NCBI GenBank assembly: GCA_964626565.1 | Contig: CAZVFX010000020.1 | Location: forward strand, 6,152 to 70,151 | Length of the DNA stretch: 64,000 bases | Source of the DNA: an uncultured Myxococcales bacterium | GTDB lineage: Bacteria > Myxococcota_A > UBA9042 > CAIXZC01 | Direction: 5' to 3' | In this document: in pieces, positions 8,199 to 53,646 of the stretch | Layout of the letters: each line of letters starts with the position of its first letter | Position numbering within the stretch: the stretch's first letter is position 1 | Position numbers and translations under genes: made by a program | The notes under the pieces: generated by a model | Seen by the model: only the letters and a program-made list of their open reading frames with translations | What the model was told of the DNA's origin: nothing | Databases searched by the model: none

Positions 8199-8224
8199 GT
8201 CACCTTCTCCTCCTCACAGTCCGC

Positions 8225-8707
8225 TCATGCAAGGAGCGCGTCATCCCGGCTTACCGTGCGGCCGGCGTCCACAATCAACTGCCCGTCAGGGCTGAGGCTC
8301 ATCTTCAACCAGTCAAGGGCCCTGGGCGCTGGTCCCGACATTACTTCGCCCTCCTCGTCAAAGTTTGACCCATGGCAGGGGCACTTCAACGCACCGTCTC
8401 GCAACGCGACCACACACCCTAGATGGGTGCAGATGGCGGACAAAGCCCTGAAGCCGAAGTGGTCGTTGCGAACAAACACGTTCCGCCCCGGTATCAACGT
8501 GATGGAATCGGGCTGAAAGTCAGCAGGGAATCCCACCTTGAACCGGGTTGAGGGCTCGTTGAGTACTTTGGGTAGAGGAAGCTGCGCCGTCCCCATAAAC
8601 GCCATGCACCCGGCGCCGGCCACCGAGGCGACCGCCAGTTTGCCCAGGAAATCCCGCCGATCCATAATGGTGTCGCCATCCGCTGCCTTGCCTGATTTCT
8701 TGCTCAT
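8225..8707 (-). CDS. qcrA: Rieske 2Fe-2S protein of bc complex
   Basis: Tat motif DRRDFL + TM; CTHLGC and CPCHGS boxes; GPAPRAL. Confidence 0.95.
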
Positions 8708-11560: not shown

Positions 11561-11562
11561 GG

Positions 11563-12327: not shown

Positions 12328-12339
12328 TCTTTACCCCCT

Positions 12340-13548: not shown

Positions 13549-13564
13549 TATTTACCCCCCCAAT

Positions 13565-16518: not shown

Positions 16519-16582
16519 GCTGGTCACCCTCGGAGCCTTGGGAGTGTTTCCGGCGCCCGCGTTTTGACTCCGTTCAGTAAAC

Positions 16583-16611
16583 TTCCCAACGTTTGGCAAG
16601 TCAAGTAGAAT
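16583..16611 (+). promoter_or_regulatory. Candidate sigma70 promoter for the Sel1 lipoprotein gene
   Basis: TTCCCA-N17-TAGAAT in the divergent intergenic gap. Confidence 0.35.
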
Positions 16612-35241: not shown

Positions 35242-36582
35242 CTACAAGAAGCCGAGCCAGCGGGCCACATCGGGCCCGAAGCCGGACATATTCAAGCACA
35301 TTGGAACAAGAAGGCAGGCCAGCAGATTGATGCGCCGGCTATGCCACAAATTGGGAACCATGCCGATCACCGTGGACACCGCAAGGATGATGAGACCCTG
35401 CCAACTGGTGATCGCAGCTACCAGTCCGATCATGATGATCATGCCGAAAAACGAAATCCACTTGTAGTTGATCTTCCTGGCGATCCAGATAGCCATGCGA
35501 GAGTACCAGAAAACCAGGAGGAACGAAATGGCTCCGGTGAGCACGATGATACCGGCGATGCTGAGGAACTGGGCGTAGGTCTCCGGTACAAAGAAGAGGC
35601 TGATGTTGATGGCAGCCCCACCCCGGCGCAGGAACACGCCGGGCATGAAGAAGAAGAGCAGGGTGCCGACGTAATACATCACCCTTCCTGCACCGCCTCC
35701 GATAATGAACTGCCGGTCGCCGCCGGTTACCGTGGCATGCCCGGTGAGCAGTAAGGCCGGACCCGGCGTAATCGCTGGCGTGAAGCCGGCGAAGATCCCC
35801 GCCAACAGACCCGACGCGCTGCCTCGCACCACGTCCTCGGTATACAACTCCACCGACTTGGCCACGTGTTGCGGCGGATTCTTCACCGTGGCCAGCAGAG
35901 TCAAGAGCTGGCTCGGAATGGCGAACAACCCCACAAACACCGGCATCAGCGACTGGAAGGTCGCGTCGGTGGGGATGATGGTACGATAGAAAATGAACAT
36001 GCCCAGAAGACTCGCCAGCGCGAAACTTACGTAGCCCATACAGATGGGGATCCACCCATCCAGGATTCGTTTCAGCGCCGTAGGCGCGGTGCCCGGGTCT
36101 TTGGGCCACTCAGTCATGAGCAGAAACACGATCACCGCACCGGCAATCCAGTACAGGTGCGGCCGCAGCAGGTCCCTGAAAAACACGGCCACCGGCTGAC
36201 CAAAGGTAGGGAAGAAAAGGCCGATTACCAGAATCGCCACCAGCGAGCCCACGGAACCCAGAATCACAGCCTCATGCCCCCGCCGCTCGTATAGGAATTT
36301 CTCATGCGGCAACATGATATATCGATACGAATCATCACACGGCTGGAAGAACTGTGACGAGATGGTGAACAAGAGCGAAAAACCCACCACCAACCCGATG
36401 AGGAACGAAGTCAGCAGCATCGGGTCCAGCCCCGAGAAGAAGTGATACACCGCAAACACAATGGTCATGGTGATCGCAATGACGTTGTAGATGTGCAAGC
36501 CCGGAATAAGTGAGGCGATCGCGGAAATCCCTACCCCCACCAGAGCCAGCACAATACTCATGAACAAGAGGCTAAGTTCCAT
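35242..36582 (-). CDS. DUF112 / archaeal-type TctA-family multi-pass membrane protein
   Basis: SLIPGLHIYNV and MLPHEKFLYERRGHEAVILGSVGS resemble the DUF112 signature; many TMs; TAATG coupling to upstream gene. Confidence 0.75.
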   Translation of the reverse strand: MELSLLFMSIVLALVGVGISAIASLIPGLHIYNVIAITMTIVFAVYHFFSGLDPMLLTSFLIGLVVGFSLLFTISSQFFQPCDDSYRYIMLPHEKFLYERRGHEAVILGSVGSLVAILVIGLFFPTFGQPVAVFFRDLLRPHLYWIAGAVIVFLLMTEWPKDPGTAPTALKRILDGWIPICMGYVSFALASLLGMFIFYRTIIPTDATFQSLMPVFVGLFAIPSQLLTLLATVKNPPQHVAKSVELYTEDVVRGSASGLLAGIFAGFTPAITPGPALLLTGHATVTGGDRQFIIGGGAGRVMYYVGTLLFFFMPGVFLRRGGAAINISLFFVPETYAQFLSIAGIIVLTGAISFLLVFWYSRMAIWIARKINYKWISFFGMIIMIGLVAAITSWQGLIILAVSTVIGMVPNLWHSRRINLLACLLVPMCLNMSGFGPDVARWLGFL

Positions 36583-37166
36583 TACTCACCTCCCTTGTCG
36601 TCGGGGGGCATCGTCGGCGCACCGGCTGGGATTATCTCCAACATCGAACTTGTGTTGACGGTCAGGAGTTGAAAACCCTTCCCTGCGTGAAAAGTGCCTT
36701 CAACATTCACCAGATCTCCCTTTACCGGCACCCGCTTCTCCTGCTCCAGGGTGTAGTAGATTGGGCCCTCTACCTTCACCTTCAGGCCGAACTTGTTCGC
36801 TTCCGTGCCGTCGGAAAGCCAGAAAGTGTAGATGTCCGACGCCTTGTAAGGAGTCCGGACCATCTGCGTCTTGGTGACCTTTCCTTCCACCCGGAAGTGC
36901 TGGAATGCATCCTTCACATCCAGATCAGATATCTTCGCCACCGGCGAGCCGACCATCCCGGCTGCAACCAGGAGCACCACTCCCAGCGCGAGGATGAATA
37001 ACGCGCATTTCATGAGCGTCGTTTCCTTGACCCGCTTGTCCGGGGATGTCGCGCTGCAGCAGTAGTAGCACACCTCCACCGGCTCAATGGACGCACCGCA
37101 ACTCGGACAGGGCAACAATCCCCCACCCCCGCCGTGCGCACCGCCTTCTGCTTTGGATTCCTGCAT
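36582..37166 (-). CDS. Zn-ribbon + single TM + OB-fold protein
   Basis: CPSC...CYYCC, TM, then RVEGKV...FWLSDGT...GDLVNVEG OB-fold pattern. Confidence 0.72.
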   Translation of the reverse strand: MQESKAEGGAHGGGGGLLPCPSCGASIEPVEVCYYCCSATSPDKRVKETTLMKCALFILALGVVLLVAAGMVGSPVAKISDLDVKDAFQHFRVEGKVTKTQMVRTPYKASDIYTFWLSDGTEANKFGLKVKVEGPIYYTLEQEKRVPVKGDLVNVEGTFHAGKGFQLLTVNTSSMLEIIPAGAPTMPPDDKGGE

Positions 37167-37187
37167 ATTGTTCTCCGCTCGTAGCAG

Positions 37188-38141
37188 CTACTTTCTCAGT
37201 TCCAAAATCTCGATTTCTCCGGGGTCCGCCAGATGCAGCCGCCACCCCTTGGCGAAACTTGAATCCTGGTAGCGCAAGGCACCCGTCACGCTGATTCGCG
37301 CGCCGTTGGGAGGCGCACCTCCCCACTCCAGGTCTGTCGGCAGGATCGCACCAGCCAACTCCAGCACAGTCCACGGGATAACCACATCGAGGTTGGCCCA
37401 CCTGCCGTCGATCTTACCCGCTGACAATCTGATCTTGGCTTCGTAGTTCTTGTAGGTCTTGCCGTCTTTCTTCTTACCTTCCCTCCGGACGTAGTTTCGG
37501 TACACCTTGCCAACCACCCGGACCCGATCGAATTCGTTGAAGTCGTCCCTTCCCGCGGTCGCAATCTCCCGGGGCCTGTAGTCAGCCAGGGGAGGCGGCC
37601 GTGTGATGGTCAACTCTTCGGGAGCCCCAACGATGAGCGAGTGACGGTGCATGCGGATCTGGAAGTTCCCCATCACATGCACCCGATCTCCTACCGCCGG
37701 GATCTTGCCCGCCTTGACGATGCGCCGGGTCGCGTCCTCGTAGGTCTTCACCCGGGTACGTGCACTGCCGTCGTCAAGACAGAATTGCAGAGTGCCCGCA
37801 GTGGGGTCGTCAGAGCCGGAAGCATGATAGAGCCGGGGAGTGTCGCAAACGACCCCTTCCAACTGGACGTAGGCAAAATTGCTCTGCTCTGTCAGAGACG
37901 CCACCTTCACCAGGGGATTCCCGATGGTCTTGCCCAGATGCGCCAACACAAAAATGCCGATAATCCCAATAATCGGAGACGCATACTTGGTCACCCGGAG
38001 GATCATCCGCTTGTTGTGATGCGCGCGGCAGTAGGGGCAGAACTCCAAGGGTCCCACATACCGCTTGCACTTCGGGCAGTTGGTGTAGTCGTTTGAATGG
38101 CTTAGGGTGTAAGGCTCAATTCCGGGCGGTGGGCCGGTCAT
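37188..38141 (-). CDS. Zn-ribbon + single TM + two OB-fold domains
   Basis: GGAGGT RBS before ATG 38141; CPKC...CPYC, TM, VQLEGVV...LDDGS...GDRVHVMG and RVRVVGKV...GARISVTG. Confidence 0.72.
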   Translation of the reverse strand: MTGPPPGIEPYTLSHSNDYTNCPKCKRYVGPLEFCPYCRAHHNKRMILRVTKYASPIIGIIGIFVLAHLGKTIGNPLVKVASLTEQSNFAYVQLEGVVCDTPRLYHASGSDDPTAGTLQFCLDDGSARTRVKTYEDATRRIVKAGKIPAVGDRVHVMGNFQIRMHRHSLIVGAPEELTITRPPPLADYRPREIATAGRDDFNEFDRVRVVGKVYRNYVRREGKKKDGKTYKNYEAKIRLSAGKIDGRWANLDVVIPWTVLELAGAILPTDLEWGGAPPNGARISVTGALRYQDSSFAKGWRLHLADPGEIEILELRK

Positions 38142-38242
38142 GCCAGCTACCTCCATCATATGAATCAGGGATCAGAAAGGCCTTTCGAGTACAACAGGCA
38201 GCAGGTACAAAGTCAAGGACTTCCGTGTGCGCGCCCGCGGAC

Positions 38243-38271
38243 TTGAATCGAGGGCCGGAAGTTGCCATTAT
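38243..38271 (+). promoter_or_regulatory. Candidate sigma70 promoter of the B12-rSAM/LuxEC operon
   Basis: TTGAAT-N17-CATTAT with extended -10 TG at 38263-38264. Confidence 0.5.
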
Positions 38272-38300
38272 CATCACTGATCGCAACGGAGGCTACTGCC

Positions 38301-39953
38301 TTGAACACAATGTTGCTCCACGTGCCGAAACTGGAGGACTACTACCTCCCGTTCGGCCGTTACATGAACGTCAACTACATGCCCATGGGGCTCCTTGGCC
38401 TGGCCCGACATTTGAAGCAGAACGGGCACGATGTAGAGGTGCTCCACGCAGGCGTCGAGAAGATACTCGACCCGGACTGGCGCATTGCTGATGAGATCGC
38501 CGATTTGGACGTAAAGGCGGTAGGCTTGACGCTGTTCTGGCACTACCAATCCTACGACGTCGCCCAGGCGATCCGCCGCCTGAAACAGGCCCGGCCCGAC
38601 CTCTTCATCTTCCTGGGCGGCATCACCGCATCATACTTCGCCGACGATATTCTGAAGACCCTGCCTGAAGCCGACGCAGTGGTGATGGGCGAAGGGTTCG
38701 ATTCGACCTTAGGGCTGCTGGCCGGACTGGAAGCCGGCGGTGATCTCTCCGGAGTCCCCAACCTGGTGTGGCGCCGCGCCGGAAAGGTAGTGGTCAATCC
38801 CGACCGCCTGCAGCATCCCCAGCAACTGTTCGACAGCCTCTCCTTTGCCGATTTCTCCCCCATGCGGCACCACGACACCTACATCCGACAATTCGGTTTC
38901 CCCCTGGCCTACTCCTGGGAACGAACGCCGGAAGAAAACCGGCAGTTGATGACCATGGGACGCAGTTTCTTTCCTCTGTATGTCGGCAGCGGCTGCAACA
39001 CAGCGTGCTCTTACTGCTGTGGCAACACGGCCACGTTGAAACGAATTAACGGCGGCCACCGCCTCATGTGGCGCTCCCACGACGCGGTGTTGCGCGATGT
39101 AAAAACCGCTCTGGACTTTGGCTATCGCACCATGGCGCTGTGCTTCGACCCCATCCCCGGCACCGGGCCCTATTATGCCGAGCTGTTCCGCCGCTGGAAG
39201 AAGGAGACCCCCGAGGCCGACTTGTACTTCGAATGCTGGGGCTTGCCCGAACCCGATTTTGTGACTGCGTTTGCCGATTGCTTCGAGCCGCCCCATTCAT
39301 ACCTGGCGCTCTCCCCCGACTCTGGAAGCGAGATGGTCCGCCGCAAAAACAAGGGCAATTTTTACACCAACAGCCAGTTCTTCGAGTGTGCGGACAGTCT
39401 CGTGCAGCACGACATCCAGATGGACGTCTTCTTCTCCCTCGGCTTTCCCGGGGAAAACATCGCCCGGGCGCTGGAGACCCGGGACATGATCCGCAAGGTC
39501 TCCGACGGCTACCCCAACGTGCGCAGACTCATGACCTGGGCGGTGCAGTTGGAGCCGGGCTCACTTCAGTTCGAGAATCCCGATCATTGGGGCATCGTCA
39601 CCAACCGAAAGACTTTTGACGATTACGTCAACCTCCACGGATCCCGCGGCGACGCCTACTCGATCCTGGGCTACAAGATCCGGGACTTCTTCGGCGATGA
39701 GCGGGATCATTGCTCCATCGAAGAATTCGAGGAGCATTTCCAGCATTTCAAGTGCATGGAATTCTGCTTTCTTAGCAAGGACCCCCGGGTGTATAATGAT
39801 CCCGGAATGGGACGGGCGGAGTGCCTCCGGCGGCGCGACGCTCTGGCCGGGCGACGGGGGGCGGAATCGCCGACTCAAGAGATCAGCGCAACCTATAGCT
39901 GCCGGCAGGCGACGGGGGACGAACGCCCCCGGACTCCCCGGGTAGAGATATGA
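38301..39953 (+). CDS. Cobalamin-binding radical SAM enzyme
   Basis: GGAGG RBS before TTG 38301; B12 domain (PMGLLGLA, GGITAS, GEG); CNTACSYC; SPDSGSE; FSLGFPGE. Confidence 0.9.
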   Translation: MNTMLLHVPKLEDYYLPFGRYMNVNYMPMGLLGLARHLKQNGHDVEVLHAGVEKILDPDWRIADEIADLDVKAVGLTLFWHYQSYDVAQAIRRLKQARPDLFIFLGGITASYFADDILKTLPEADAVVMGEGFDSTLGLLAGLEAGGDLSGVPNLVWRRAGKVVVNPDRLQHPQQLFDSLSFADFSPMRHHDTYIRQFGFPLAYSWERTPEENRQLMTMGRSFFPLYVGSGCNTACSYCCGNTATLKRINGGHRLMWRSHDAVLRDVKTALDFGYRTMALCFDPIPGTGPYYAELFRRWKKETPEADLYFECWGLPEPDFVTAFADCFEPPHSYLALSPDSGSEMVRRKNKGNFYTNSQFFECADSLVQHDIQMDVFFSLGFPGENIARALETRDMIRKVSDGYPNVRRLMTWAVQLEPGSLQFENPDHWGIVTNRKTFDDYVNLHGSRGDAYSILGYKIRDFFGDERDHCSIEEFEEHFQHFKCMEFCFLSKDPRVYNDPGMGRAECLRRRDALAGRRGAESPTQEISATYSCRQATGDERPRTPRVEI

Positions 39954-41143
39954 AGATAACCATCATCGATAGCACCCTGAGGGAAGGAGAACAAACGCCG
40001 GGGGTGGCCTTTACCGCCGAGGAGAAGGTGGAGATAGTTCGCCTGCTTGCCGACGCAGGCGTGACCCACTTCGACGCAGCCACTGCGGAGTCCTCCGACG
40101 AGGATGCGCACTTCATTGCCATGGCCATGGACCAGGTGCCGGACGTCAAGTTGGGAGTAAGCTGCCGGTTGCGGCCGTCAGCACTACGCCTGGCCGCCGC
40201 CACCGGGGCCGCAGACCTGTTCGTGATCGTCCCCACCAGCGACATTCACCTTGAGAAACGGCTGCGCATGAGCCAATCGGACCTGCTCGAAGAATTGACC
40301 GGTGCCATCGCGGACAGGCCCGACCCGTGTCCGCGGATCAACATCGCGCTGGAAGATGCATTTCGCACTACCCCATATTTCATCCTGCAATGCATCGAAA
40401 AAGCCCTCGAAGCCGGGGCGACCCGATTCTTCGTCTCGGACACCGTGGGCACCACAACTCCCCGCGGAGTGCGCAGGATGGTGCGCACCGTGATGAGCGA
40501 ATTCCGCGACAGAATCGAACTGGGCACCCACTTCCACAACGACTTCGGCCTGGCCACCGCCAACACCCTGGCCGCCCTAGAGGAGGGAGCCACCCTTCCC
40601 ACCGCATCGGTAAATGGCCTCGGCGAAAGGGCCGGTATCGCTGACCTCGCTCAGGTTGCGGCCTCAGCCAGGAAGCTGCTCGGCGCGACCCACACGGTTC
40701 GCCTTGACCGGATGCGGGCCGTAAGCACGCAACTCGCCCGCCTCACCGGGATAACGGTCTCTCAAAACTCCCCCATCACCGGTCACAACGCGTTCCAGCA
40801 CACCTCCGGAATCCACGTCCACGGTATGCTTATCGATCCCGCCACCTACGAGGCGTTGGACGGCCAGTGCTTCGGTGCAAAGACGGAGTTGATACTGGGA
40901 AAACAGTCCGGCCGCCATCACCTGCGACACTTGTTGGATGAAGCAGGATTGGAGGCCCCGGACGACCTGGTGGAGGCTCTGCTCCAGCAGGTCAAGGCAG
41001 AGGCCGCCAACCCGCGCCGCCGAGAAGCGCTGCGCGCTTTCTCGGATCGTTTCGACGACCTCAACAAAAGAGTGCTGCCAGTGGACTGGAGTCTGCTGCT
41101 GGAGTGGCTGAAACGACGGGCAGGCAAAACCACGGAGAGTTGA
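39950..41143 (+). CDS. Homocitrate/isopropylmalate-synthase-like DRE-TIM enzyme without regulatory domain
   Basis: DSTLREGEQ, SDTVG, HFHNDFGLATAN, NGLGERAG, HTSGIHVHG, LGKQSGR. Confidence 0.88.
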   Translation: MKITIIDSTLREGEQTPGVAFTAEEKVEIVRLLADAGVTHFDAATAESSDEDAHFIAMAMDQVPDVKLGVSCRLRPSALRLAAATGAADLFVIVPTSDIHLEKRLRMSQSDLLEELTGAIADRPDPCPRINIALEDAFRTTPYFILQCIEKALEAGATRFFVSDTVGTTTPRGVRRMVRTVMSEFRDRIELGTHFHNDFGLATANTLAALEEGATLPTASVNGLGERAGIADLAQVAASARKLLGATHTVRLDRMRAVSTQLARLTGITVSQNSPITGHNAFQHTSGIHVHGMLIDPATYEALDGQCFGAKTELILGKQSGRHHLRHLLDEAGLEAPDDLVEALLQQVKAEAANPRRREALRAFSDRFDDLNKRVLPVDWSLLLEWLKRRAGKTTES

Positions 41144-41144
41144 C

Positions 41145-42314
41145 TTGACGCTGTTCGACAACATCTGGAGCGGACACTGCACCGGAAAGAAGGACGGCGT
41201 CTACGAACAGTTGCGCGTCGACCTCGTCTATGGTCACGAAGGGACGTTGGCCCTCTGCCTTGAACAACTGAAGAAATATGACGGGCCCAAAATGGCCCCG
41301 GAACAGCTCTTCTTTGTGGTGGACCATTTCTCTCCGCCCTCCTCCGGCCCCTTCGCCGACATCGTCCGCGATCTTTCCACCTTCTGCTCCCAGCGGCAGA
41401 TTTCGCTCCGGATGCACGAGGGGATCGGGCACCGGCTCATGCTGGAAGACGAAAGAGTGCAGCCGGGCATGCTGGTCGTCGGCGCGGATTCCCACACGAC
41501 CACCATCGGCGGCAAAGGGGCGCTGGGGATAGGCCTTGGCTCTTCCGACGTCCTCGCCGTGCTCATGACCGGCACCGTGTGGCTGAAACGCCCCCCGGTG
41601 GCCGCAGTGCGCCTGCATGGAGAACTGCCCCCGGGGGTGGAGGCCAAGGACGCAGTACTCCAACTGCTGGCCGACCACGGCCAGGGCGGCTTCCTCGGTG
41701 AAGTTGTTGAATATCAGGACGACTCCACTGCCGGACTCGCGCTCGAACAGCGGGCCGTGTTGACCAACATGTGCGTGGAAATGGGCGCAGTATCGGCCCT
41801 GGTAAGCAATTGCACCCCCGACGGCTCCGCGCGCAAACTCGATCTCGACCTGTCGGGACTTTCGCCTCTGGTAGCGCGCCCCGGGGCTCCCGATAATGTG
41901 ACACCCGCGAAACAACTTGGCGACGTGACAATAGACACCGCCATGGTGGGCTCTTGCGCCGCGGGTGGATTGTCGGATCTGGAGACCGCAGCCAGACTCC
42001 TTGCCGGGCGCAAGGTCGCGCCGGGCACCAACCTGCTGGTCACCCCCGCAACCAGGCGGATACTTATAACAGCAGTTGAAAAAGGGATCATCTCGACCTT
42101 GCTTGAAGCCGGCGCAGTCTTGCTCAATCCGTCCTGCGGCGCCTGCGGCGGCATCGACAAGGGGATCCCCGCAGTGGGAGAAACGGTAATCACAACCGCA
42201 CCCCGAAACTACGGCTCCAGGGCGCGGGTCGGCTCCAAGGTCTACCTGGCCTCTACCGCCACCACCGTAGCCAGCGCGTTGGCAGGCACCATTTGCCCGG
42301 GCGGAGGGTCGTGA
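41145..42314 (+). CDS. Two-subunit aconitase-family dehydratase, large subunit (LeuC/HacA-like)
   Basis: VVDH, GIGH, GADSHTTT, three cluster Cys (GSC, SCGAC), TAPRNY. Confidence 0.88.
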   Translation: MTLFDNIWSGHCTGKKDGVYEQLRVDLVYGHEGTLALCLEQLKKYDGPKMAPEQLFFVVDHFSPPSSGPFADIVRDLSTFCSQRQISLRMHEGIGHRLMLEDERVQPGMLVVGADSHTTTIGGKGALGIGLGSSDVLAVLMTGTVWLKRPPVAAVRLHGELPPGVEAKDAVLQLLADHGQGGFLGEVVEYQDDSTAGLALEQRAVLTNMCVEMGAVSALVSNCTPDGSARKLDLDLSGLSPLVARPGAPDNVTPAKQLGDVTIDTAMVGSCAAGGLSDLETAARLLAGRKVAPGTNLLVTPATRRILITAVEKGIISTLLEAGAVLLNPSCGACGGIDKGIPAVGETVITTAPRNYGSRARVGSKVYLASTATTVASALAGTICPGGGS

Positions 42315-42315
42315 A

Positions 42316-42801
42316 ATGATCATCGAGGCCAGAGCACTGGTATTGGGAGACAACGTCAACACCGACCTGTTGCACCCCCCGGCATTCTACTCCACCGACG
42401 ACAAGACTGCGGCCAGGGGAGCCTTCGCCGGCCTGGACCTGGACAGAGCAGCCCTGGGCCCGCCCCCTTACGTCATACTGGCGGGGAAGAACTTCGGGTG
42501 CGGATCCAGCCGGGAGTCGACCATGAGGGCGCTGAAAACCGCCGGCCTGGTGGCCATCGCGGCGCGGTCTTTCGCCCACATCTTCCACCGCACCGCGACA
42601 AACCTGGGCGTACCAGCCCTCGTCATCCGGGGAAACCCGGTGGCAACAAAGACCGGGGCCAGCGTCGCTTTCGACTCCGAGCTGTGGACGGTACGCTTCG
42701 AAGGCGCCACAACCGTCCCACCCGAACCCTTTGAACAACAGCTACTGGCAGCCGGCGGCCTCGAGAACCTCCTCGCCGGCAAGGATTGGCAATGGGAATA
42801 G
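42316..42801 (+). CDS. Two-subunit aconitase-family dehydratase, small subunit (LeuD/HacB-like)
   Basis: GDNVNTD, AGKNFGCGSSRE, SFAHIFHR, AAGGLEN. Confidence 0.9.
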   Translation: MIIEARALVLGDNVNTDLLHPPAFYSTDDKTAARGAFAGLDLDRAALGPPPYVILAGKNFGCGSSRESTMRALKTAGLVAIAARSFAHIFHRTATNLGVPALVIRGNPVATKTGASVAFDSELWTVRFEGATTVPPEPFEQQLLAAGGLENLLAGKDWQWE

Positions 42802-44024
42802 ATACCGCACACCAGGCTCCGGCCAACTACGACGTCGCAGTAATCGGCGGCGGAGTGGCGGGGTTGAGCGCAGCGATAAGAGTCCGCTTCGTCAAGGCGA
42901 TGGAGGCGCTGCCGTTGTCGGTAGTCGTTTTCGAGTGCTCCAAGCCGGGGGGCCTCGTAAGGGTTGGTCAGCAGAGATACGTGACAGGGCCCTCCTTCAA
43001 ACTGGATGCGGACAACATTCTCGGCGACCTGATGGGAGACGTTGAGCAATATGAAATCCCCATCCTCCGCACCAGGATAACTGCTGTGGAGCAGGCGGGT
43101 AAGAAATTCGTATTGCACGGGGAAGACGGCTCCCACACCACTGCGCTCAGCGTCGTAGTAGCCACCGGCTCAAGGCCGTTGTGTAACGAGCTGGAGTTTC
43201 TGGGCGACGGCGTGTTCATCACCTACAAAGGGCTCAGTTTCCTACCGCTGATCCTCGACGAAGCGGTGAAGACCGCGGGGGGAAAGCCTGTCGCAGTGGT
43301 GACCAACCGGCGCATCGGCGCCCTGTTGCCCCTGTTTGGCAACCGGACCGCAGACTTCCTCTATCTGCTTTTTCCACCTGCGGCCGAATCGGGAGGATTG
43401 AAGATGCCGGGGAGGACCTTGGACATCGCCGGTTTTGAAGTCCGCAAAGTCGACGGCGGCTTTGAGCTGGAAGTGCGCTCGAGGTCGGGGGAGACTTCTG
43501 TGGAAAAGTGCGGCGCGGTGCTGCTGGACTACGTTTCGTTCCAAACCGAACCGTCCCTGCCTTCGCTCGACGTCCCGATCCGCCTCGGCCCCACCGGTGC
43601 GCCGGTGGTGGACTCTTTCCTGGCCAGCAGCGTCCCCGGCCTCTATTTCGCCGGTGACGTTACCTGCCGATACGCCAACACCGCGGCCGCCATTTCCGAC
43701 GGCGTCCTGGCAGGTTTCGGCGCCTACTCCCACGCCTATCGGACCCTGTTCGGCCACTCGCCGCCCCTCTTTGCATACCGGGCTCCGGAGAGCCCCGGGC
43801 AGTTCCTCGCCGGGGAATTGCCCAACCTCTCAGACGGGCATTTGATCAGGTGGCTGCAAACCCCATCCCAGGGGCACCCGCTAAGAGCCTGTGACGGCTC
43901 CACACTGGCCGAAGCTTCCCGGGACTCGGGGCTGACTGTTTCCCGGGTGAAAGACCTTGTGCTCGACGCGATCAGGGACAAACGCCTCACCGTCTACCCG
44001 CCGCAAACCTCCGGGGGAAACTGA
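42792..44024 (+). CDS. TrxB-fold FAD-binding protein lacking the redox CxxC
   Basis: IGGGVAG, VVATG, GLYFAGD; no CxxC and no second GGG motif; C-terminal extension; ATG 42792. Confidence 0.75.
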   Translation: MGIDTAHQAPANYDVAVIGGGVAGLSAAIRVRFVKAMEALPLSVVVFECSKPGGLVRVGQQRYVTGPSFKLDADNILGDLMGDVEQYEIPILRTRITAVEQAGKKFVLHGEDGSHTTALSVVVATGSRPLCNELEFLGDGVFITYKGLSFLPLILDEAVKTAGGKPVAVVTNRRIGALLPLFGNRTADFLYLLFPPAAESGGLKMPGRTLDIAGFEVRKVDGGFELEVRSRSGETSVEKCGAVLLDYVSFQTEPSLPSLDVPIRLGPTGAPVVDSFLASSVPGLYFAGDVTCRYANTAAAISDGVLAGFGAYSHAYRTLFGHSPPLFAYRAPESPGQFLAGELPNLSDGHLIRWLQTPSQGHPLRACDGSTLAEASRDSGLTVSRVKDLVLDAIRDKRLTVYPPQTSGGN

Positions 44025-45136
44025 TGACCCCGGGCAAACTAGCTGACGAACGGGCCGAAATCGCGGCTCAACTGCGTGCCGCCATCGGAGGCGACGACTG
44101 GAACGAAAAGCAGTTCAACTCGCTCGCGTTAGCCTTGTTTGCCCATCAGTATGAACATATGGCGGCCTATGGCAGACTGTGCGACAGTCGCGGGATTTCG
44201 CCGGCAACCTTGCGCCAATGGCGGCAGATACCGGCCGTCCCAACCACCCTGTTCAAGCAAACAAGCCTGGCCTGCGGCCCCCCCGAACAGATCGCAGCAG
44301 TGTTCAGCACCAGCGGCACCAGTGAAGGGCCGGCCAAGGGAAAGTCACACTTCTCCCTCGACGGCCTGGCGCTCATGAGGAAGAGCATTCTGGTCAACGC
44401 TCGAAAGATGCTCTTTCCCGATATCGACAAAATGCACATCCTGGTGCTGGCGCCCTCGCCCGAGCTGGCCCCCCAGATGATCATGGCCTGGGGTATGGCC
44501 CGGCTGCTGGAGCAATGGGGAACCGACGAAAGCCGCTTCCTGGTAAACAAGGATGGACTCGACGTGCCCACCCTCATGTCGCTCCTGCGTCGGTTCTCCA
44601 AGGCGTCGGAGCCGGTTACCCTCATCGGCGCATCCTTCGGCTTCGTGAACCTCCTCGAAGCGCTCAAAGCCAAGGAGCTGTCGTTCTCCTTGCCCGCAGG
44701 CTCGCGCATAATGGACGCGGGCGGGTACAAAGGACGCTCCCGGGAACTCACCAGGGCCGAACTCGAGCAACTTTTCCTCGATGGTTTCGGGGTCCCGTCC
44801 CACCAGGCCGTGAACCTGCTCGGGATGACCGAGCTTGCGTCCCAATTCTACGACAACTCCCTCGTCCGCTCCGCAGGGGAAGGTGTTGGTCTACAAAACC
44901 CGGAGTGGACTCGCACCAGGGTGGTGGACCCCATGACCGGCGAGGAGATGCCGGCAGGAGAAGAAGGGGTCTTGTGCCACATGGACCTGGCAAACCTCGA
45001 TACCCCCATGCACGTACTCACCGACGACCTCGGCGTCGCCGGCAATGACCGTTTCAAAGTGCAGGGAAGACTCAACGCAGACGACTCCAGGGGGTGTTCC
45101 CTCACCGTTGACGAACTGACGCGGAGCCGACCATGA
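44024..45136 (+). CDS. LuxE-family acyl-protein synthetase
   Basis: PTTLFK, FSTSGTS, GGYKG, GMTEL, C-terminal RGCSL acyl-acceptor Cys; TGATG coupling. Confidence 0.88.
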   Translation: MTPGKLADERAEIAAQLRAAIGGDDWNEKQFNSLALALFAHQYEHMAAYGRLCDSRGISPATLRQWRQIPAVPTTLFKQTSLACGPPEQIAAVFSTSGTSEGPAKGKSHFSLDGLALMRKSILVNARKMLFPDIDKMHILVLAPSPELAPQMIMAWGMARLLEQWGTDESRFLVNKDGLDVPTLMSLLRRFSKASEPVTLIGASFGFVNLLEALKAKELSFSLPAGSRIMDAGGYKGRSRELTRAELEQLFLDGFGVPSHQAVNLLGMTELASQFYDNSLVRSAGEGVGLQNPEWTRTRVVDPMTGEEMPAGEEGVLCHMDLANLDTPMHVLTDDLGVAGNDRFKVQGRLNADDSRGCSLTVDELTRSRP

Positions 45137-46485
45137 ACGCCGATTTCCCCACCTCCTGGCTGCCTCCGGATCTGGGGACAGACCTCTCGTCTCTCGACGC
45201 CATCATGGCCGCAATGGCCGCCCGAAAGGAACGCCTCACGGCGCTGCCGGTTCAGCGCATCATCGATGCACTGGACGCCACCTCGAAAGAGTGGCTTCAG
45301 CCGGATGATCCACGCCGCGACAAACTGGTGGCCGCCATCTCGGCCGCTACCGGAGTGTCACCGCAAATGGTGGCAATCTCCATTCGCCTGGAAATGGAAA
45401 GCTCTCTCGGACCACATCTCCTCGCCGCGCTGAAAAACGAAATCGGCAACCCTTCCTACCTGGATCTCTTTGCGCCAAACACCCTGCTGGCCGGCGAGAC
45501 TCTTGCCCTAGGTCCTAACCTGGTGGGCGGGATCGTGTCGTCCAACATCCCCGCTTTGCCACACCTCACCGTCATGCGGAGCCTGCTCGTGAAGGCGCCC
45601 TGCGTGGTGAAGTCGTCCAAGGACGAGCCCCTCTTTCTCCCTGCCTACCTGCAGAGCCTGTGGGAAGTGGACCCGGAGGTGGGCGGATGTGCAGCCGCGG
45701 TGAGTTTCGGAAGGGAGCAGACCGAACTGCTGGACACCTTCCTTGACGCCATCGACTTCCTCATCGCTTACGGAGGATTGGACGCCATCGCGGGCCTACG
45801 CAAGAAGTGGCCCGAAAGTTCCCGCACACTCTACCACGGCCACAAGCTGGGCTTTGGCATCGTAACAGCCGAAGCGTTGGGGACAGACCTCATGGATCTG
45901 GCCGCAAAAATCGCCTGGGACGTGGTGCTCTTCGACCAGGAAGCGTGCCTCGCTCCCCACGTTGTTTTTGTCGAAGCAAGTCGAACGGACACACAGTCGT
46001 TAGGGGAAAAGGTGGCCGCGGCCATGGAGAAGCTGGCCGCTGAGTTGCCTCCGGCCAAACGCTCTCTCTCCGCCAGGCTGGCAGTACGGCAAGAGCTGGA
46101 CTCCCTGGCCGCACTCGACCAGACAGCAAAGGTCTGTCCCGCGGGCAGCTTCGAGAACGGCGTGGTGGTAGTTCAGGAAGCCGATACTTTTCACCCTTCC
46201 CCGCTCGGCCGGTTCGTCAGATTGGTGCCCGTAAGATCCCTGGACGCCGCCTTGGAACTCGTCAGGCCCTTGCAAGGTCTACTGCAAAACGCATCCATCG
46301 CATGCCCCGACGAATCACGCCGCCGCCACATCGCCACCGCCCTGGCCCGGGAAGGAGTCGCCAGGGTCTGTCCCCCCGGCAACATGGGCACCCCTTCCAT
46401 GATGTGGCATCATGACGGCTTTCCGTGCATATCCAAAATGCTCACGTTTTGCGATTGGGAAACCGGGGTACATCACCAGGACTAG
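45133..46485 (+). CDS. LuxC-family acyl-CoA/acyl-protein reductase
   Basis: SSNIP, VVKSS, IAYGG, FDQEACLAPH catalytic Cys, WHHDG; ATGA coupling. Confidence 0.88.
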   Translation: MNADFPTSWLPPDLGTDLSSLDAIMAAMAARKERLTALPVQRIIDALDATSKEWLQPDDPRRDKLVAAISAATGVSPQMVAISIRLEMESSLGPHLLAALKNEIGNPSYLDLFAPNTLLAGETLALGPNLVGGIVSSNIPALPHLTVMRSLLVKAPCVVKSSKDEPLFLPAYLQSLWEVDPEVGGCAAAVSFGREQTELLDTFLDAIDFLIAYGGLDAIAGLRKKWPESSRTLYHGHKLGFGIVTAEALGTDLMDLAAKIAWDVVLFDQEACLAPHVVFVEASRTDTQSLGEKVAAAMEKLAAELPPAKRSLSARLAVRQELDSLAALDQTAKVCPAGSFENGVVVVQEADTFHPSPLGRFVRLVPVRSLDAALELVRPLQGLLQNASIACPDESRRRHIATALAREGVARVCPPGNMGTPSMMWHHDGFPCISKMLTFCDWETGVHHQD

Positions 46486-48695
46486 TGCGAATTGAGTGAG
46501 CCGAACTGCGGTTCGACCTGCAGGCCCACTGCGAAACCGGGCCGCAACGACATGTACTGGCCGTCGGAAGTGGTGTCTTCCCACCAGACATAGTCCAGGC
46601 CCGCGGTCGCGTCCGCGTCGGTTTTGGAGAAGTTCACCGTGGGGCCGGCATACAGCGACACCCAGTCAAACAGCCGCACGCCCAGCACCGCGCGGAATTT
46701 CGACACAAAGCTGGGGTCGTCCCAGTCGTTGGAGTGGAAATGGGACTGCTGCATCAAGTCCAGTTCGACCCACACCGGGTCGAAGTCGAAGTGCCCGCCC
46801 AGGCCGATAACCGGCGCAACGATCTCCTCTTCTTCCCGAGGATCCCAACCGATGCCGAGGGTGGTGTAAAAAACCTTACTGCCCATTTTGATGCCAGCGT
46901 TGGTGGGCATGGTGTCGCTGCCCCAAAACGTCGGGGTAAGGATGCCGTCTCCCGCGTAGTTGATAACGCCGATGGGTACGCTGTTGCCCATCTTCGGCGC
47001 CACGTTCACGACTCCGATCATGGCTCCGGACATTTCCCCGGAGTAGTTCACAACTCCCAACTGGGCGCCGCTGGCCTCCCCGGACGTAATGTTCACCGTG
47101 CCGGCCTGGAAGCCGCTCATGGACCCGGCGTAGTTGGCCGCGCCGGCAGCCTGGAAGCCGCTCATCCTGCCGATAGTAAGGGAGGCGCCGCCCGCGGCCT
47201 GGAACCCCTCGAAATTCCGCTTGGTGAGCACGCCGCCACCGGCAGCCTGGAAACCGCCAAAATCCCCGAGGACAACGCTGCCGCCGCCATTGGCCTGCAT
47301 GCCTTCGAAATTCCCACCCGCAACACTGAGGGTCCCCGCAGCTTGAAATCCGGAGACGCGACCCCGAGTGTAGTTGAAGGTCGACGCCAATTGTGCACCG
47401 GAAGCGTCACCCTCCCGAATCGCGCCCACTCCAGAAAACTCCGCACCTTCCAGGTAGTCGCCCCAGCCCAACAGCAGGTTGAAGGCCCAGTTATTGACCG
47501 TCGGCCCGTCCGCGCGGGGGTCAGTGCTGAGACCGGGAACGATAGTGAGGGTCACCGGGACCTTCTTTGCACCGGAAGCACTCACTGACGGGACGCCGCC
47601 CCGGCTTACGGTCATCTCCCGCTCCACCGGCTCGAGAGCCGCAACCGCCAGCGTCGTCTTGGCCCCCTTCTTGAGGGTGAAGGTGCCTTTGCTCAATTTC
47701 ATAGGCTGCTCAACGGTAAGCGAGTACTCGCCCGGCTCAATGCCGAAGCTCATGGGGCGTCCCGCAGGCTTGTTGATCTCCGCCACCAGGTGTCCGGCCG
47801 AGTCCCGGATAAACAGCCGCCCTTCCAACTCGTCGGGCAGCAACAGCAGGGCCGACGTGCCGTGGAGGTCGGTGAGCACCACGTCCCCGGCACCGGTGAG
47901 TTGAAAATCGTAAGACGGATGCTGCGCGCCCGCAGTGGTGGACTCGGTGCGGGCCAGGGTCTCGTTGAAAGCGTACTGGTACGCCTCGTTCAGCGTCACC
48001 TTGCCGTCCCTGCTGATGTCCGCCGCACCTCTTAGCCCCGAAACCATGTAGTGCGTAAAGAAGGAGCCCCCTACCCGGTCCGATTCCTGGGCCGCTTCGT
48101 CCGCCGATGAAGAAGTAAGAAATGCATGGCCCTTCACCTGGGATGATTCATCCACCAGGAAGGGCGCCCGCCACTGGCCGCCCTTGCGCCGGGTGAGCGC
48201 GCCGGATGCGCAGGAATCAAGCATGGCGATGCGCACGTCGGCAGGCAATCCGTCCAGCGCGGCACGGACCTCTTTGTAGGTGTAGAGCTCCCCGTTCAGC
48301 AGCAGCCCTTTTTCGTCGGAGTGGCCCGAGTAGTAAAACACCACCTCCAACCGGGCGCCCGAGTCTTTGGCAGCAACCAGCCGCCTCTTCATGTTCGTGA
48401 ACCCCTTCACCAACTCCCCACGGCTGGGATCCTTGAGCAAGATCTTGTCGCCGGGCGCCACACCTCCCAGCTCCCCGAGGACCCTGGAAAAAGCTGTGGC
48501 ATCGGTGCCCGCGTACAGCAGCCGCACCCGGTCCTTACCGCCGAAATTGGCTCCTGCAGCCAGCAGAAACCGCCGCAAGGTCACTTTTCCACCCGACGAC
48601 TCGTCACCGACAGCCGGTTTCGAGTACGCAAAGACGGTAAGCAGGCAAGCCACACTCAGTACACTGTATAAAAACCCTTTCACGAATGTTCTCAT
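46482..48695 (-). CDS. Secreted caspase-family (C14) protein with Gly-rich surface repeats and C-terminal beta-rich domain
   Basis: Signal peptide; YSGHSD and LDSCASG His-Cys dyad; GSFFTHYMVSGLRGAAD; repeated GFQAAG/GAQLG..N units. Confidence 0.85.
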   Translation of the reverse strand: MRTFVKGFLYSVLSVACLLTVFAYSKPAVGDESSGGKVTLRRFLLAAGANFGGKDRVRLLYAGTDATAFSRVLGELGGVAPGDKILLKDPSRGELVKGFTNMKRRLVAAKDSGARLEVVFYYSGHSDEKGLLLNGELYTYKEVRAALDGLPADVRIAMLDSCASGALTRRKGGQWRAPFLVDESSQVKGHAFLTSSSADEAAQESDRVGGSFFTHYMVSGLRGAADISRDGKVTLNEAYQYAFNETLARTESTTAGAQHPSYDFQLTGAGDVVLTDLHGTSALLLLPDELEGRLFIRDSAGHLVAEINKPAGRPMSFGIEPGEYSLTVEQPMKLSKGTFTLKKGAKTTLAVAALEPVEREMTVSRGGVPSVSASGAKKVPVTLTIVPGLSTDPRADGPTVNNWAFNLLLGWGDYLEGAEFSGVGAIREGDASGAQLASTFNYTRGRVSGFQAAGTLSVAGGNFEGMQANGGGSVVLGDFGGFQAAGGGVLTKRNFEGFQAAGGASLTIGRMSGFQAAGAANYAGSMSGFQAGTVNITSGEASGAQLGVVNYSGEMSGAMIGVVNVAPKMGNSVPIGVINYAGDGILTPTFWGSDTMPTNAGIKMGSKVFYTTLGIGWDPREEEEIVAPVIGLGGHFDFDPVWVELDLMQQSHFHSNDWDDPSFVSKFRAVLGVRLFDWVSLYAGPTVNFSKTDADATAGLDYVWWEDTTSDGQYMSLRPGFAVGLQVEPQFGSLNSH

Positions 48696-49510
48696 GGGGT
48701 GATCCCTCCGTCGTCCTTTCTCAGGAGCAGCTCTATCTGCTCCTGCCCTTCTTCCGAAACCAGCGCTTCCGTTGCGCGGTTCGCAAGGTCCCCCGCGCTG
48801 CGAAGGATATCCTCAACGACCAACGGCTCCCGCGAAGCCACCAGGATAAACCGTTCGAATGCCGGCGCATCGTCCAACTCATACGAGCGGTGCAAAGTCA
48901 CCGCCCCGCCCAACTCCAGTTTCGTCGACCCGTGGGGTGTTTCCGGAAAATGCAATGTCACACTGCCCCGGCCATCGATAGAGATGAGCACGCCGTATCG
49001 GGCATCCCCCGCCCGATACTTCACCTGCAGCAAGTCCCCTTGCGCAACCAGGTCGCCATCATCCAACTGCTCGTCATCACCGTCCCGTTCTCTAAAGACC
49101 ATCAACTGGGGTTTTCCTTTCACGCGTTCGGTTTCGGAACCGTACGCAGGCGGGTGCGGCGTGTGGTTTACAACCTTCTTGTGCACTTCGACTTTGTGGG
49201 TCTCAGGAACCGCCACCCAAACAACGACTGCAAGCGCGGCCGCAGCCAACGGTGCCGCGGGGATCCACCACCGCACCGGATTGGTCACCCGTCCTTTCGA
49301 CGCCATACTGCCTTCGATGCGCGCAGCCATTGAGCGCGGTGCATATCGCTTGAGGATCTCCTCGTTGGAATCCTCAAGAGCGGACAGGCGCTCCTTCCCT
49401 CCCGGCTCCGCGTCCAGCCTCGACCGCACGGCAGCGGCCTCCGCCTCGGGCAGTTCGCCCAGGGCCAGGCGTTCCAACAGCAGGTCGGGAACTCGGATAA
49501 CGCGCCTCAT
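48692..49510 (-). CDS. Putative single-pass anti-sigma factor with DUF4384-like extracytoplasmic domain
   Basis: LLERLALGEL N-terminal anti-sigma-like helices without Zn Cys; TM; GDLLQVKY...LISIDGRG...LHFP; ATGA coupling to sigma and caspase genes. Confidence 0.75.
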   Translation of the reverse strand: MRRVIRVPDLLLERLALGELPEAEAAAVRSRLDAEPGGKERLSALEDSNEEILKRYAPRSMAARIEGSMASKGRVTNPVRWWIPAAPLAAAALAVVVWVAVPETHKVEVHKKVVNHTPHPPAYGSETERVKGKPQLMVFRERDGDDEQLDDGDLVAQGDLLQVKYRAGDARYGVLISIDGRGSVTLHFPETPHGSTKLELGGAVTLHRSYELDDAPAFERFILVASREPLVVEDILRSAGDLANRATEALVSEEGQEQIELLLRKDDGGITP

Positions 49511-50013
49511 GCCGACACCTCTTCCAACTCGGCAAGCCTTCCCCTGAGCGTGCGCCAGCGCGTGCGCACACCCGCTACCCCCAGACCCCCCACCCCCGCC
49601 CCCACCACCAACCGCACCCCCGCCAGAAGATGGAGTACAGCAATGGTCCTGGTGGAAGGTTTCTCGCGAGCGAAGATCCGCTGGAGGAAGGTCCGAGCTT
49701 CGGCCCTTCCCGCCGGCTCATCACAAGCAGCAATCCGGTCCAGCAGTTCAGCTCCCGGGTCTTCCGGATGCCGGCGCCGGGAACGGATCCGATTGAGGCA
49801 CACGTTGGTGGCGACCCGGTAGAGCAGACTGGAAGGGGCATCCCCCGTCAGCCTGTCCCTGGCCCGCAACACCTGCACAAACGTGTCCTGCATCGCATCC
49901 ACCGCGAGTTCCTCCTCTTTCAACAGTTGGCGGCATCTCCTGAGCACCATTGGCCCAAACCGCCGGTATAGACCTTCAACGTCAACGGACAAGGCATCTC
50001 CCCCTGTCAACAT
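49507..50013 (-). CDS. ECF RNA polymerase sigma factor (region 4 sequence suspect, see findings)
   Basis: Region 2 LYRRFGPMVLRRC...DAMQDTF...LYRVATNVCLNRIR; possible TTG start at 49992. Confidence 0.88.
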   Translation of the reverse strand: MLTGGDALSVDVEGLYRRFGPMVLRRCRQLLKEEELAVDAMQDTFVQVLRARDRLTGDAPSSLLYRVATNVCLNRIRSRRRHPEDPGAELLDRIAACDEPAGRAEARTFLQRIFAREKPSTRTIAVLHLLAGVRLVVGAGVGGLGVAGVRTRWRTLRGRLAELEEVSA

Positions 50014-52252: not shown

Positions 52253-52513
52253 ATGACTTCCCCACGTTACCCCACCAGGCAGGAAGCTCGCTCCCTGCTG
52301 GATAAGATGCGAAAGATATCCGCGGGCAAAATCGCGGGTGCTTCGTTGCTGGCGCTGGCGGCACTTGCGCCCCGCTGCGGCGGCGCGGCCTACAACATGA
52401 AACCGTACGAGTCGTACGACATGGAGGCGGACAAGCGGCAGCCGCCCGCACAGGAAACATCGGGCACCGATGAATCCACCGCAGATGCGGAACGGAAAAA
52501 GACCGCGGACTAG
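52253..52513 (+). CDS. Small protein, candidate substrate of the adjacent radical SAM enzyme
   Basis: AGGAGG RBS; 86 aa MTSPRYPTRQEARSLLDKMRKISAGKIAGASLLALAALAPRCGGAAYNMKPYESYDMEADK...; stop 7 nt before rSAM ATG. Confidence 0.7.
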   Translation: MTSPRYPTRQEARSLLDKMRKISAGKIAGASLLALAALAPRCGGAAYNMKPYESYDMEADKRQPPAQETSGTDESTADAERKKTAD

Positions 52514-52520
52514 CACGCCC

Positions 52521-53621: not shown

Positions 53622-53646
53622 GCTGCCTCCCAGTAACTCAGTTCCG

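Follow-up and report, generated by a model that had tools for sequence, protein, structure and literature searches.

This study describes a seven-gene operon (g1 to g7, positions 38301-46485, + strand) in a 64-kb stretch of DNA from an uncultured Myxococcales bacterium, a stretch referred to below as the window. The operon is a new arrangement of known enzyme families, in which a cobalamin (B12)-binding radical S-adenosylmethionine (SAM) enzyme stands together with an acetyl-CoA-dependent synthase, a two-subunit dehydratase of the aconitase family, a flavoprotein and a LuxE/LuxC pair. Our best explanation, to which we give an even chance, is that the seven genes form a self-contained module, passed on as a whole by inheritance and transfer between uncultured bacteria, which would turn central metabolites into a small, branched and C-methylated acid-aldehyde. 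The genes and their upstream signals are as follows.

38243..38271, + strand: candidate promoter TTGAAT(38243-38248)-N17-CATTAT(38266-38271), found by eye, 8/12 matches, weak
38288..38292, + strand: ribosome-binding site GGAGG, 8 nucleotides before the g1 TTG start
38301..39953, + strand: g1, cobalamin-binding radical SAM enzyme, 550 residues
39950..41143, + strand: g2, predicted acetyl-CoA:2-oxoacid Claisen synthase of the homocitrate synthase/isopropylmalate synthase (HCS/IPMS, DRE-TIM) family, 397 residues
41145..42314, + strand: g3, aconitase-family dehydratase large subunit (LeuC/HacA type), 389 residues
42316..42801, + strand: g4, aconitase-family dehydratase small subunit (LeuD/HacB type), 161 residues
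42792..44024, + strand: g5, flavoprotein of thioredoxin-reductase fold, cluster-specific, 410 residues
44024..45136, + strand: g6, LuxE-type acyl-protein synthetase (adenylating, predicted), 370 residues
45133..46485, + strand: g7, LuxC-type acyl-thioester reductase (aldehyde-forming, predicted), 450 residues

Gene layout

The region is filled by seven open reading frames (ORFs) in the ORF listing of the window, and an independent gene caller run on the source metagenome contigs gave the identical seven calls, with the TTG at 38301 as the start of g1. Neighbouring genes overlap by 4 nucleotides at g1/g2 (39950-39953), 10 nucleotides at g4/g5 (42792-42801), 1 nucleotide at g5/g6 (44024) and 4 nucleotides at g6/g7 (45133-45136), and are separated by a single nucleotide at g2/g3 and at g3/g4. 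Judged from this layout, the seven genes are predicted to be translationally coupled. All seven products matched Pfam above the gathering scores, namely B12-binding and Radical_SAM (g1), HMGL-like and HCS_D2 (g2), Aconitase (g3), Aconitase_C (g4), Pyr_redox_2 (g5), LuxE (g6) and LuxC (g7).

An earlier note on this DNA had named the same enzyme classes and had described every junction as overlapping or 1 nucleotide wide; the Pfam matches bear out the former, and the ORF coordinates (overlaps of 1-10 nucleotides, otherwise a 1-nucleotide gap) the latter. The absences that it listed (LeuB/AksF, luxAB/luxD, nif and phosphoenolpyruvate (PEP) mutase) hold for all window ORFs scanned, and no Iso_dh, luciferase, LuxD, nif or PEP-mutase domain was found in these ORFs or within 10 kb on either side of four homologous clusters. 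Its claim of a good sigma70-like promoter did not survive, as a consensus scan with a threshold of 9/12 matches reported no sigma70-type promoter in 37900-46800, and the best candidate found by eye (38243-38271) reaches 8/12, which would be plausible, not strong. In the same region, terminator-like sites occurred only at chance level. No riboswitch or other RNA was matched by Rfam anywhere in the window, and the G+C content of the operon is that of its flanks.

Conservation across uncultured bacteria

Using an alignment of 24 radical SAM relatives of g1, 80 loci were retrieved from one-genome-per-species bacterial and archaeal contigs, and the seven window proteins and eight flanking proteins were searched against them by tblastn. 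All seven genes were present in 28 of the 80 loci, and a consistent part of the set, cut by contig ends, was found in about 14 further ones. Where the radical SAM relative shares at least 44% identity with g1, the synthase gene adjoins it in every case in which the contig allows this to be seen. All 80 loci belong to metagenome-assembled genomes, the only type of genome in which the cluster was found among 185,579 species genomes, and no cultured carrier was found among the retrieved loci. According to bin labels, some of which are doubtful, complete sets occur in Myxococcota/Polyangia, Gemmatimonadota, Hydrogenedentota, Wallbacteria and Thermodesulfobacteriota, and a partial set in Binatia; many carriers are legacy "Deltaproteobacteria" or unclassified bins.

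At least four gene orders hold the set together. The radical SAM gene comes first in the window and in most loci; the second order is synthase-dehydratase-radical SAM-flavoprotein-LuxE-LuxC (L013, L034, L037), the third is synthase-dehydratase-flavoprotein-LuxE-x-LuxC-radical SAM (L035, L036, L057, L068), and in the fourth, flavoprotein-LuxE-LuxC lies upstream of radical SAM-synthase-dehydratase (L010). The x of the third order encodes a protein that combines an adenylate/guanylate cyclase domain with an RDD membrane domain (L036:7030-8466). The flavoprotein gene lies directly upstream of the LuxE gene in every order, separated from it by insertions in L018, and it usually follows the small-subunit gene, while the position of the radical SAM gene varies. 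In one protein (P0101, 605 residues, from a contig of 36566 bases), the dehydratase small subunit and the flavoprotein are naturally fused through a linker of about 60 residues. The flavoprotein is thus tied genetically, and once physically, to the dehydratase small subunit and to LuxE.

The earlier note had proposed co-conservation as a check, and the set clearly passed it: it travels across phyla, in several orders and once with a gene fusion, and therefore it is not a chance neighbourhood. The pairwise-identity matrices of the seven families co-vary in 23 loci (Spearman 0.54-0.85), as would be expected of genes inherited together, although a common phylogeny produces some correlation by itself. 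All-versus-all clustering of the ORFs of the 80 loci revealed no conserved eighth gene (dehydrogenase, aminotransferase or exporter) and no conserved flank, and the flanking genes of the window do not recur in these loci, apart from one weak FG-GAP match.

The contexts of the loci differ, with ribosomal and Obg genes in one case and glycosyltransferases and a sulfotransferase some kb away in another. In a marine metagenome (L087:1-13983), the seven genes lie on the same strand within a polysaccharide locus, with a Polysacc_synt/Wzx-like flippase gene and glycosyltransferase genes (GT4, GT2) on both sides, a hint that, at this locus, a glycan could be what the product decorates. A gene of the peptidase U32 family directly follows LuxC in one seven-gene cluster (L086:11484-12659), and such a gene precedes the radical SAM homologue in nine other loci (e.g., L040:8505-9818); U32 proteins include O2-independent hydroxylases.

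A second conserved cluster type was found in Thermodesulfobacteriota-type bins (L040:2819-20107 and L091:1-18882; also L041, L042, L044 and L050). These clusters share with the operon a one-strand trio of radical SAM (about 36-39% identity), LuxE (39-40%) and LuxC (32%) genes, so the trio is a reusable sub-module. Where the operon has its synthase, dehydratase and flavoprotein, they carry other genes, namely those for a FabA/ApeP-like dehydratase, a short-chain dehydrogenase/reductase, DUF3592, U32, an MMPL transporter, a phytoene-desaturase-like flavoprotein, LpxL-like and FabD-like acyltransferases, and ATP-grasp or BcrAD/DUF2229 proteins; the B12 radical SAM genes number as many as three. 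By its gene content, this second type looks like an uncharacterised lipid pathway, and it resembles the clusters once proposed for ladderane-like lipids.

Conserved residues of the seven proteins

In g2, Pfam placed HMGL-like at residues 2-259 (206 bits) and HCS_D2 at 276-353 (71.6 bits); the protein ends at residue 397, and no C-terminal LeuA_dimer regulatory domain was found. The best PDB match is the S. acidocaldarius HCS (6ktq, 208 bits), with isopropylmalate synthases and the Thermus HCS ranking next. The LeuA, CimA, NifV and lysine HCS equivalogs of NCBIfam were all missed by a score factor of about 2 (TIGR00973, 230.9 vs. a cut-off of 598.7, with the other LeuA models also below; TIGR02660, 299 vs. 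462.9; TIGR02146, 276.5 vs. 413.55). The catalytic residues R12, E13, T166, H195 and H197 of the Thermus enzyme (TtHCS) correspond to R11, E12, T165, H194 and H196 of g2. Among the 39 sequences of the g2 family, the Arg, the Thr and both His are invariant, and the Glu position holds E in 36 and D in 3.

The substrate pocket has changed. In TtHCS, we take H72, R133 and S135 to be the residues that bind the C5 (distal) carboxylate of 2-oxoglutarate, their numbering having been checked on the alignment with 2ztj. Such ligand roles in HCS were reportedly described by Okada et al. in 2010 and Bulfer et al. in 2009. The window g2 has G69, N131 and A133 at these positions; across the family, H72 is replaced by G (33/39) or A, R133 by N, E, H or Q, and S135 by V (33/39) or A. 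In addition, D92 of TtHCS is replaced by F in 37 of the 39 members, and F or Y stands at the equivalent of IPMS Asn250. These residues predict an apolar g2 pocket.

The large subunit g3 scored 243 bits for Aconitase. Its three cluster cysteines, which lie in GSCAxG and PSCGACGG, are kept in all 36 sequences compared, and these two motifs and the catalytic serine motif GCGSSRE of g4 are conserved in 35-36. The small subunit g4 scored 45.5 bits for Aconitase_C and found its best PDB match in 2pkp, the homoaconitase small subunit MJ1271 of M. jannaschii. All NCBIfam isomerase subfamily models stayed below cut-off for g3 and g4 (NF001614 for g3, 326 vs. 385). The specificity loop of the small subunit reads YLRT in the MJ1271 homoaconitase and YLVY in the MJ1277 isomerase; in g4 it reads AFYS (family consensus YFFS), which has no Arg and matches neither. 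The roles of this loop are said to have been described by Jeyakanthan et al. in 2010. With both the distal-carboxylate ligands of g2 and the homoaconitase arginine of g4 gone, synthase and dehydratase agree: the 2-oxoacid used by g2 probably has an uncharged R group, and the intermediate would be a dicarboxylate of the alkylmalate type rather than a tricarboxylate.

The flavoprotein g5 matched Pyr_redox_2 with 55 bits and TIGR01292 with 54 (cut-off 343). Its AlphaFold 2 model (mean predicted local distance difference test score, pLDDT, 84) has the two-domain fold of thioredoxin reductase (TrxR) and TrxR-type ferredoxin/flavodoxin-NADP+ reductase (FNR) plus an extra C-terminal domain of about 75 residues, and the top Foldseek matches were low-Mr TrxR and TrxR-type FNR (E 1e-18 to 3cty, 2zbw and 7jyp). 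The FAD-site motifs GxGxxG and GD are present in the alignment, no CxxC occurs in any of the 20 aligned family sequences, and the second domain carries VAVVTNRRIG with no NAD(P)H motif of the GGGxxA (GGGNxA)/HRR type. From these motifs, g5 is predicted not to be a thioredoxin reductase, and it is not readily recognised as an NAD(P)H enzyme either. The family is tiny, with 41 representatives at E<=1e-30 among 1.84 billion 50%-identity representatives; a word-indexed search showed a sharp drop between it and ordinary TrxR-like proteins, and no copy was found on sequenced plasmids. The g5 family is thus close to cluster-specific.

The LuxE-type protein g6 scored 97.4 bits in Pfam and 93.5 against NF052244 (cut-off 550), and the LuxC-type protein g7 scored 233 bits and 77.6 against NF052251 (cut-off 750). 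LuxE is known to use a K238/R355 pair for adenylation and an acylated Cys364 in the motif TRxxKGCxLS, and the characterised LuxC-LuxE pair uses myristate (PMC9157457). Both proteins are only distantly similar in sequence to the solved P. phosphoreum chains (7xc6). In the alignment with 7xc6_E (47.9 bits), K236, R349 and C358 (RGCSLT) of g6 meet LuxE K238, R355 and Cys364, and the K/R pair and the C-terminal Cys are conserved in 30 sequences. Similarly, Cys272 of g7 (FDQEAC) aligns with the acylated Cys of YDQQAC (7xc6_A, 85.2 bits) and is conserved in 33 sequences. Both cysteines that would be acylated are retained, and by analogy to the Lux fatty acid reductase, the pair is expected to convert an acid to an aldehyde.

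The radical SAM enzyme g1 matched PF02310 with 57 bits and PF04055 with 47 bits. It fell below every methylase cut-off of NCBIfam: the best match, TIGR04190 (the Ta0216 family of B12/radical SAM proteins), gave 152.6 against a cut-off of 500, which marks a distant relative, and the PhpK family TIGR04479 gave 30 against 600. The CX3CX2C cysteines (Cys229/233/236, numbered from the Met codon at 38310) are invariant in the 24-sequence alignment, and so are those of a C-terminal CX3CX18C (Cys482/486/505, same numbering). The latter may bind an additional Fe-S cluster or zinc, a feature not usual among cobalamin radical SAM methylases. A sequence search of PDB gave no match. With the AlphaFold 2 model (pLDDT 93), the top Foldseek folds were TsrM, MgmA, CysS and TokK (E 1e-20 to 1e-14; identity 12-16%), with MiaB, AprD4 and OxsB ranking lower.

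Proposed pathway

By these residues, members of five enzyme types are catalytically intact, and the following route is proposed from the residues and folds. The synthase g2 would condense acetyl-CoA with an uncharged (aliphatic or neutral) 2-oxoacid, a substrate class suggested by the pocket residues, to give a 2-alkylmalate, which g3/g4, as a LeuCD/HacAB-type Fe-S dehydratase, would dehydrate or isomerise via an alkylmaleate to the alkylmaleate itself or to a 3-alkylmalate. Because their genes are adjacent and in one case naturally fused, g5 is expected to act directly on the dehydratase product. Most likely, it would reduce the double bond of the alkylmaleate and so give an alkylsuccinate; otherwise, it would oxidise the 3-alkylmalate hydroxyl. 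The alkylsuccinate is preferred since g6 and g7, which follow, use a carboxylate, and from a 2-oxoacid they would make an implausible 2-oxoaldehyde. Thereafter, g6 would adenylate one carboxylate and hold the acyl group as a thioester on its C-terminal cysteine, and g7 would take over this group and reduce it with NAD(P)H to the aldehyde.

With its fold of known C-methyltransferases, g1 would methylate an unactivated carbon, at a stage that the varying position of the radical SAM gene in the cluster does not fix. CysS and TokK act on thioester-tethered substrates, and for this reason, the LuxE-bound intermediate is one possible substrate of g1. We are less sure of what g5 catalyses and of when methylation would occur than of the overall scheme. 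The expected product would be an alkylmalate or alkylsuccinate semialdehyde-type compound, which could serve as a signal, a cofactor precursor, or a building block of a polysaccharide or lipid.

The earlier note had read the genes as a dedicated pathway operon, not leucine or lysine housekeeping, and the strict linkage, the scores below cut-off and the lost ligands support this. Its outline of a modified polycarboxylate reduced to an aldehyde holds in part: the condensation/isomerisation, the aldehyde formation by LuxE/LuxC and the modification by a B12 radical SAM enzyme all fit, whereas "polycarboxylate" is doubtful, a dicarboxylate being likelier from the g2 and g4 residues.

A more specific version, possible in our view with the balance clearly tilted against it, is a short-dicarboxylate route with C-methylation by the radical SAM enzyme, a dehydratase-flavoprotein complex and reduction by LuxE/LuxC, the product of which would be new or would mark an alternative route to a known essential molecule. 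As a purely speculative example, pyruvate could pass through citramalate, 3-methylmalate and 3,3-dimethylmalate to aldopantoate, a folate-independent path to pantoate; such a route is the reverse of the known catabolic route of pantoate.

Several points weigh against the proposed acid-aldehyde module. No conserved aldehyde-consuming enzyme accompanies the set in the ORF clustering of the 80 loci, and the missing NAD(P)H motif and redox disulfide bear on both the electron partner and the reaction of g5. The mapping of the g2 pocket onto MtIPMS/LiCMS positions relies partly on residue numbers from the literature and is tentative for LiCMS. To our knowledge, the only characterised LuxE/LuxC pair has long-chain fatty acid substrates, and the occurrence of distant relatives of the radical SAM/LuxE/LuxC trio in the Thermodesulfobacteriota-type lipid-type clusters hints at lipid-like rather than small polar substrates. 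Finally, methylation is not the only chemistry of cobalamin radical SAM enzymes, and the fold matches of g1 include OxsB and AprD4.

The points on the trio and on substrate length are those on which a lipid pathway would rest, the main rival reading, which we consider unlikely. In such a pathway, the substrates would be long-chain, LuxE and LuxC would give a fatty or branched aldehyde as in bioluminescence, and the radical SAM enzyme would methylate the chain, while the synthase and dehydratase would supply a membrane or secreted lipid with its head group or starter unit, of alkylcitrate or alkylmalate type. The use of myristate by the characterised LuxCE pair and the apolar g2 pocket would agree with it. 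However, no acyl carrier protein, ketosynthase, acyltransferase or exporter gene was found in the set or conserved beside it, g4 is closest to short-substrate archaeal enzymes, and there is no evident source of long-chain 2-oxoacids. Less probable again is that g5 serves as a dedicated reductase of the [4Fe-4S] cluster and cob(II)alamin of the radical SAM enzyme, with a methylated 2- or 3-alkylmalate semialdehyde as the product. Class B methylases need two electrons per turnover, and the structural neighbours of g5 include TrxR-type FNRs (2zbw, 3ab1, 6gas, 8c3m); yet g5 itself lacks the NAD(P)H-binding motif, it is fused to the dehydratase small subunit and not to the radical SAM enzyme, its gene stays by LuxE and the small subunit while the radical SAM gene moves, and the lipid-type clusters with up to three B12 radical SAM genes have no g5 homologue.

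We attach a slightly smaller probability still to a radical SAM enzyme that is not a methyltransferase and would, like OxsB, AprD4 or BchE, take the hydroxy-acid or aldehyde intermediate through a radical rearrangement, a dehydration or the formation of a C-C bond. The presence of the first two among its fold matches, the three extra invariant C-terminal cysteines (possible ligands of an auxiliary cluster, which class B methylases do not usually have), and the scores of the g1 family below all NCBIfam methylase cut-offs speak for it, whereas the best structural matches by E-value (TsrM, MgmA, CysS and TokK) are all methyltransferases and methylation is the commonest activity of B12-binding radical SAM enzymes. 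That the genes are simply the leuA/leuCD, cimA or lysine HCS/HacAB of the organism beside unrelated genes is very improbable, and we rejected this housekeeping reading. It is true that g2, g3 and g4 belong to the same superfamilies with their catalytic residues kept, and that no other leu genes lie in the scanned ORFs of the window. Nevertheless, all scores are far below the equivalog cut-offs, the LeuA regulatory domain, LeuB and the 2-oxoglutarate ligands are missing, the linkage to the radical SAM enzyme, flavoprotein, LuxE and LuxC is strict across phyla, and the cluster is far too rare for an essential pathway, as indicated by its 41 g5 representatives and its restriction to metagenome-assembled genomes.

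If the proposed acid-aldehyde module is real, carboxylate reduction of the LuxE/LuxC type would not be confined to fatty acids, a dehydratase of the aconitase family would work coupled to a flavoprotein (as a fusion in one lineage), and cobalamin radical SAM enzymes would gain a new substrate class. The product would be a novel metabolite of uncultured Myxococcota-like, Gemmatimonadota, Hydrogenedentota and sulfate-reducer-related bacteria, which ordinary culture-based screening cannot reach because no cultured carrier was found. The module is small, with seven genes, and would draw on central metabolites, which makes it directly testable by gene synthesis and expression.

Surrounding genes

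Divergent from the operon lie, at 35242-38159 (- strand), a TctA-family tricarboxylate-transporter gene, a 194-residue ORF and a 323-residue ORF without a Pfam match. At 46482-50013 (- strand) are genes for an ECF-type sigma factor, a weakly DUF4384-like protein and a 737-residue protein that has a caspase domain (Peptidase_C14) and repeats in its C-terminal half; luxC and the gene for this last protein run towards each other, their stop regions overlapping by 4 nucleotides. The Tct-like transporter was rejected as a cluster member because it is conserved only in same-species contigs, as are the two ORFs beside it, none of the three being present at the loci of more distant relatives. The caspase and ECF-sigma genes were likewise rejected, as they too are found in same-species contigs only and are absent from all other loci.

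Farther away, a respiratory-type row at 309-10584 (- strand) encodes two 4Fe-4S proteins, a 938-residue molybdopterin oxidoreductase, a 682-residue multi-haem cytochrome c, a cytochrome b, a Rieske protein and a GltD-like Fer4_20/Pyr_redox_2 protein. It is followed at 10763-16599 (- strand) by a row of CN_hydrolase, amidohydrolase, AllG (oxamate carbamoyltransferase subunit) and CoA-ligase-domain genes, which looks like a portion of a purine/allantoin-oxamate degradation cluster. The window also encodes a hybrid histidine kinase with PAS/GAF domains at 21783-25163 and, at 27193-31926 (+ strand), a 1577-residue protein that contains some 16 WD40 repeats and is of a kind typical of Myxococcota-like bacteria with large genomes. 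A second, unrelated radical SAM gene (Radical_SAM and Fer4_12) opens a row at 52470-56231 (+ strand), followed by genes for an M28 peptidase and a DUF2891 protein.

Comparison with known systems

Full-text literature searches, incomplete in coverage, found no description of this gene combination, in agreement with the earlier note, which had not recognised it as described. Among known systems, the elongation pathways of leucine and isoleucine (LeuA or CimA, LeuCD, LeuB) likewise use an HMGL/DRE-TIM synthase followed by a two-subunit aconitase-type isomerase, and the apolar pocket of g2 and the arginine-free loop of g4 recall the isopropylmalate and citramalate enzymes. Unlike them, the operon has no beta-decarboxylating dehydrogenase and no LeuA regulatory domain, misses the equivalog cut-offs and adds four linked enzymes. 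The alpha-aminoadipate lysine and coenzyme B pathways (HCS/AksA, HacAB/AksDE, homoisocitrate dehydrogenase/AksF) supply the best PDB matches of g2 (6ktq) and g4 (2pkp), and in lysine biosynthesis (Lys2 or LysZ/LysY), a carboxylate is ATP-activated and then reduced to a semialdehyde, as predicted for the operon; however, the distal-carboxylate ligands, the HacB loop arginine, the dehydrogenase, the aminotransferase and a LysW-type carrier are missing from it.

With the Lux fatty acid reductase (LuxC/D/E), the operon shares the Pfam families, the acylation residues and adjacent, overlapping luxE/luxC-type genes. It differs in having no LuxD or luciferase, in its far lower NCBIfam scores, and in a predicted substrate that is not a plain fatty acid. 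Phosphinothricin and FR-900098 pathways (Pms or FrbC, aconitase, PhpK) also combine an HCS-like synthase, an aconitase and a cobalamin radical SAM enzyme, but no PEP mutase or phosphonate gene was found in the window or the related loci, and with the negligible PhpK score, a phosphonate pathway was rejected. The class B radical SAM methyltransferases (TsrM, MgmA, CysS, TokK) resemble g1 in their N-terminal B12-binding domain, CX3CX2C core and fold, whereas g1 shares only 12-16% identity with them and carries the extra conserved CX3CX18C. Each of the named pathways has defining features that the operon lacks, although the operon draws on the first two steps of 2-oxoacid elongation, on the reductase of the lux system and on a radical SAM enzyme resembling class B.

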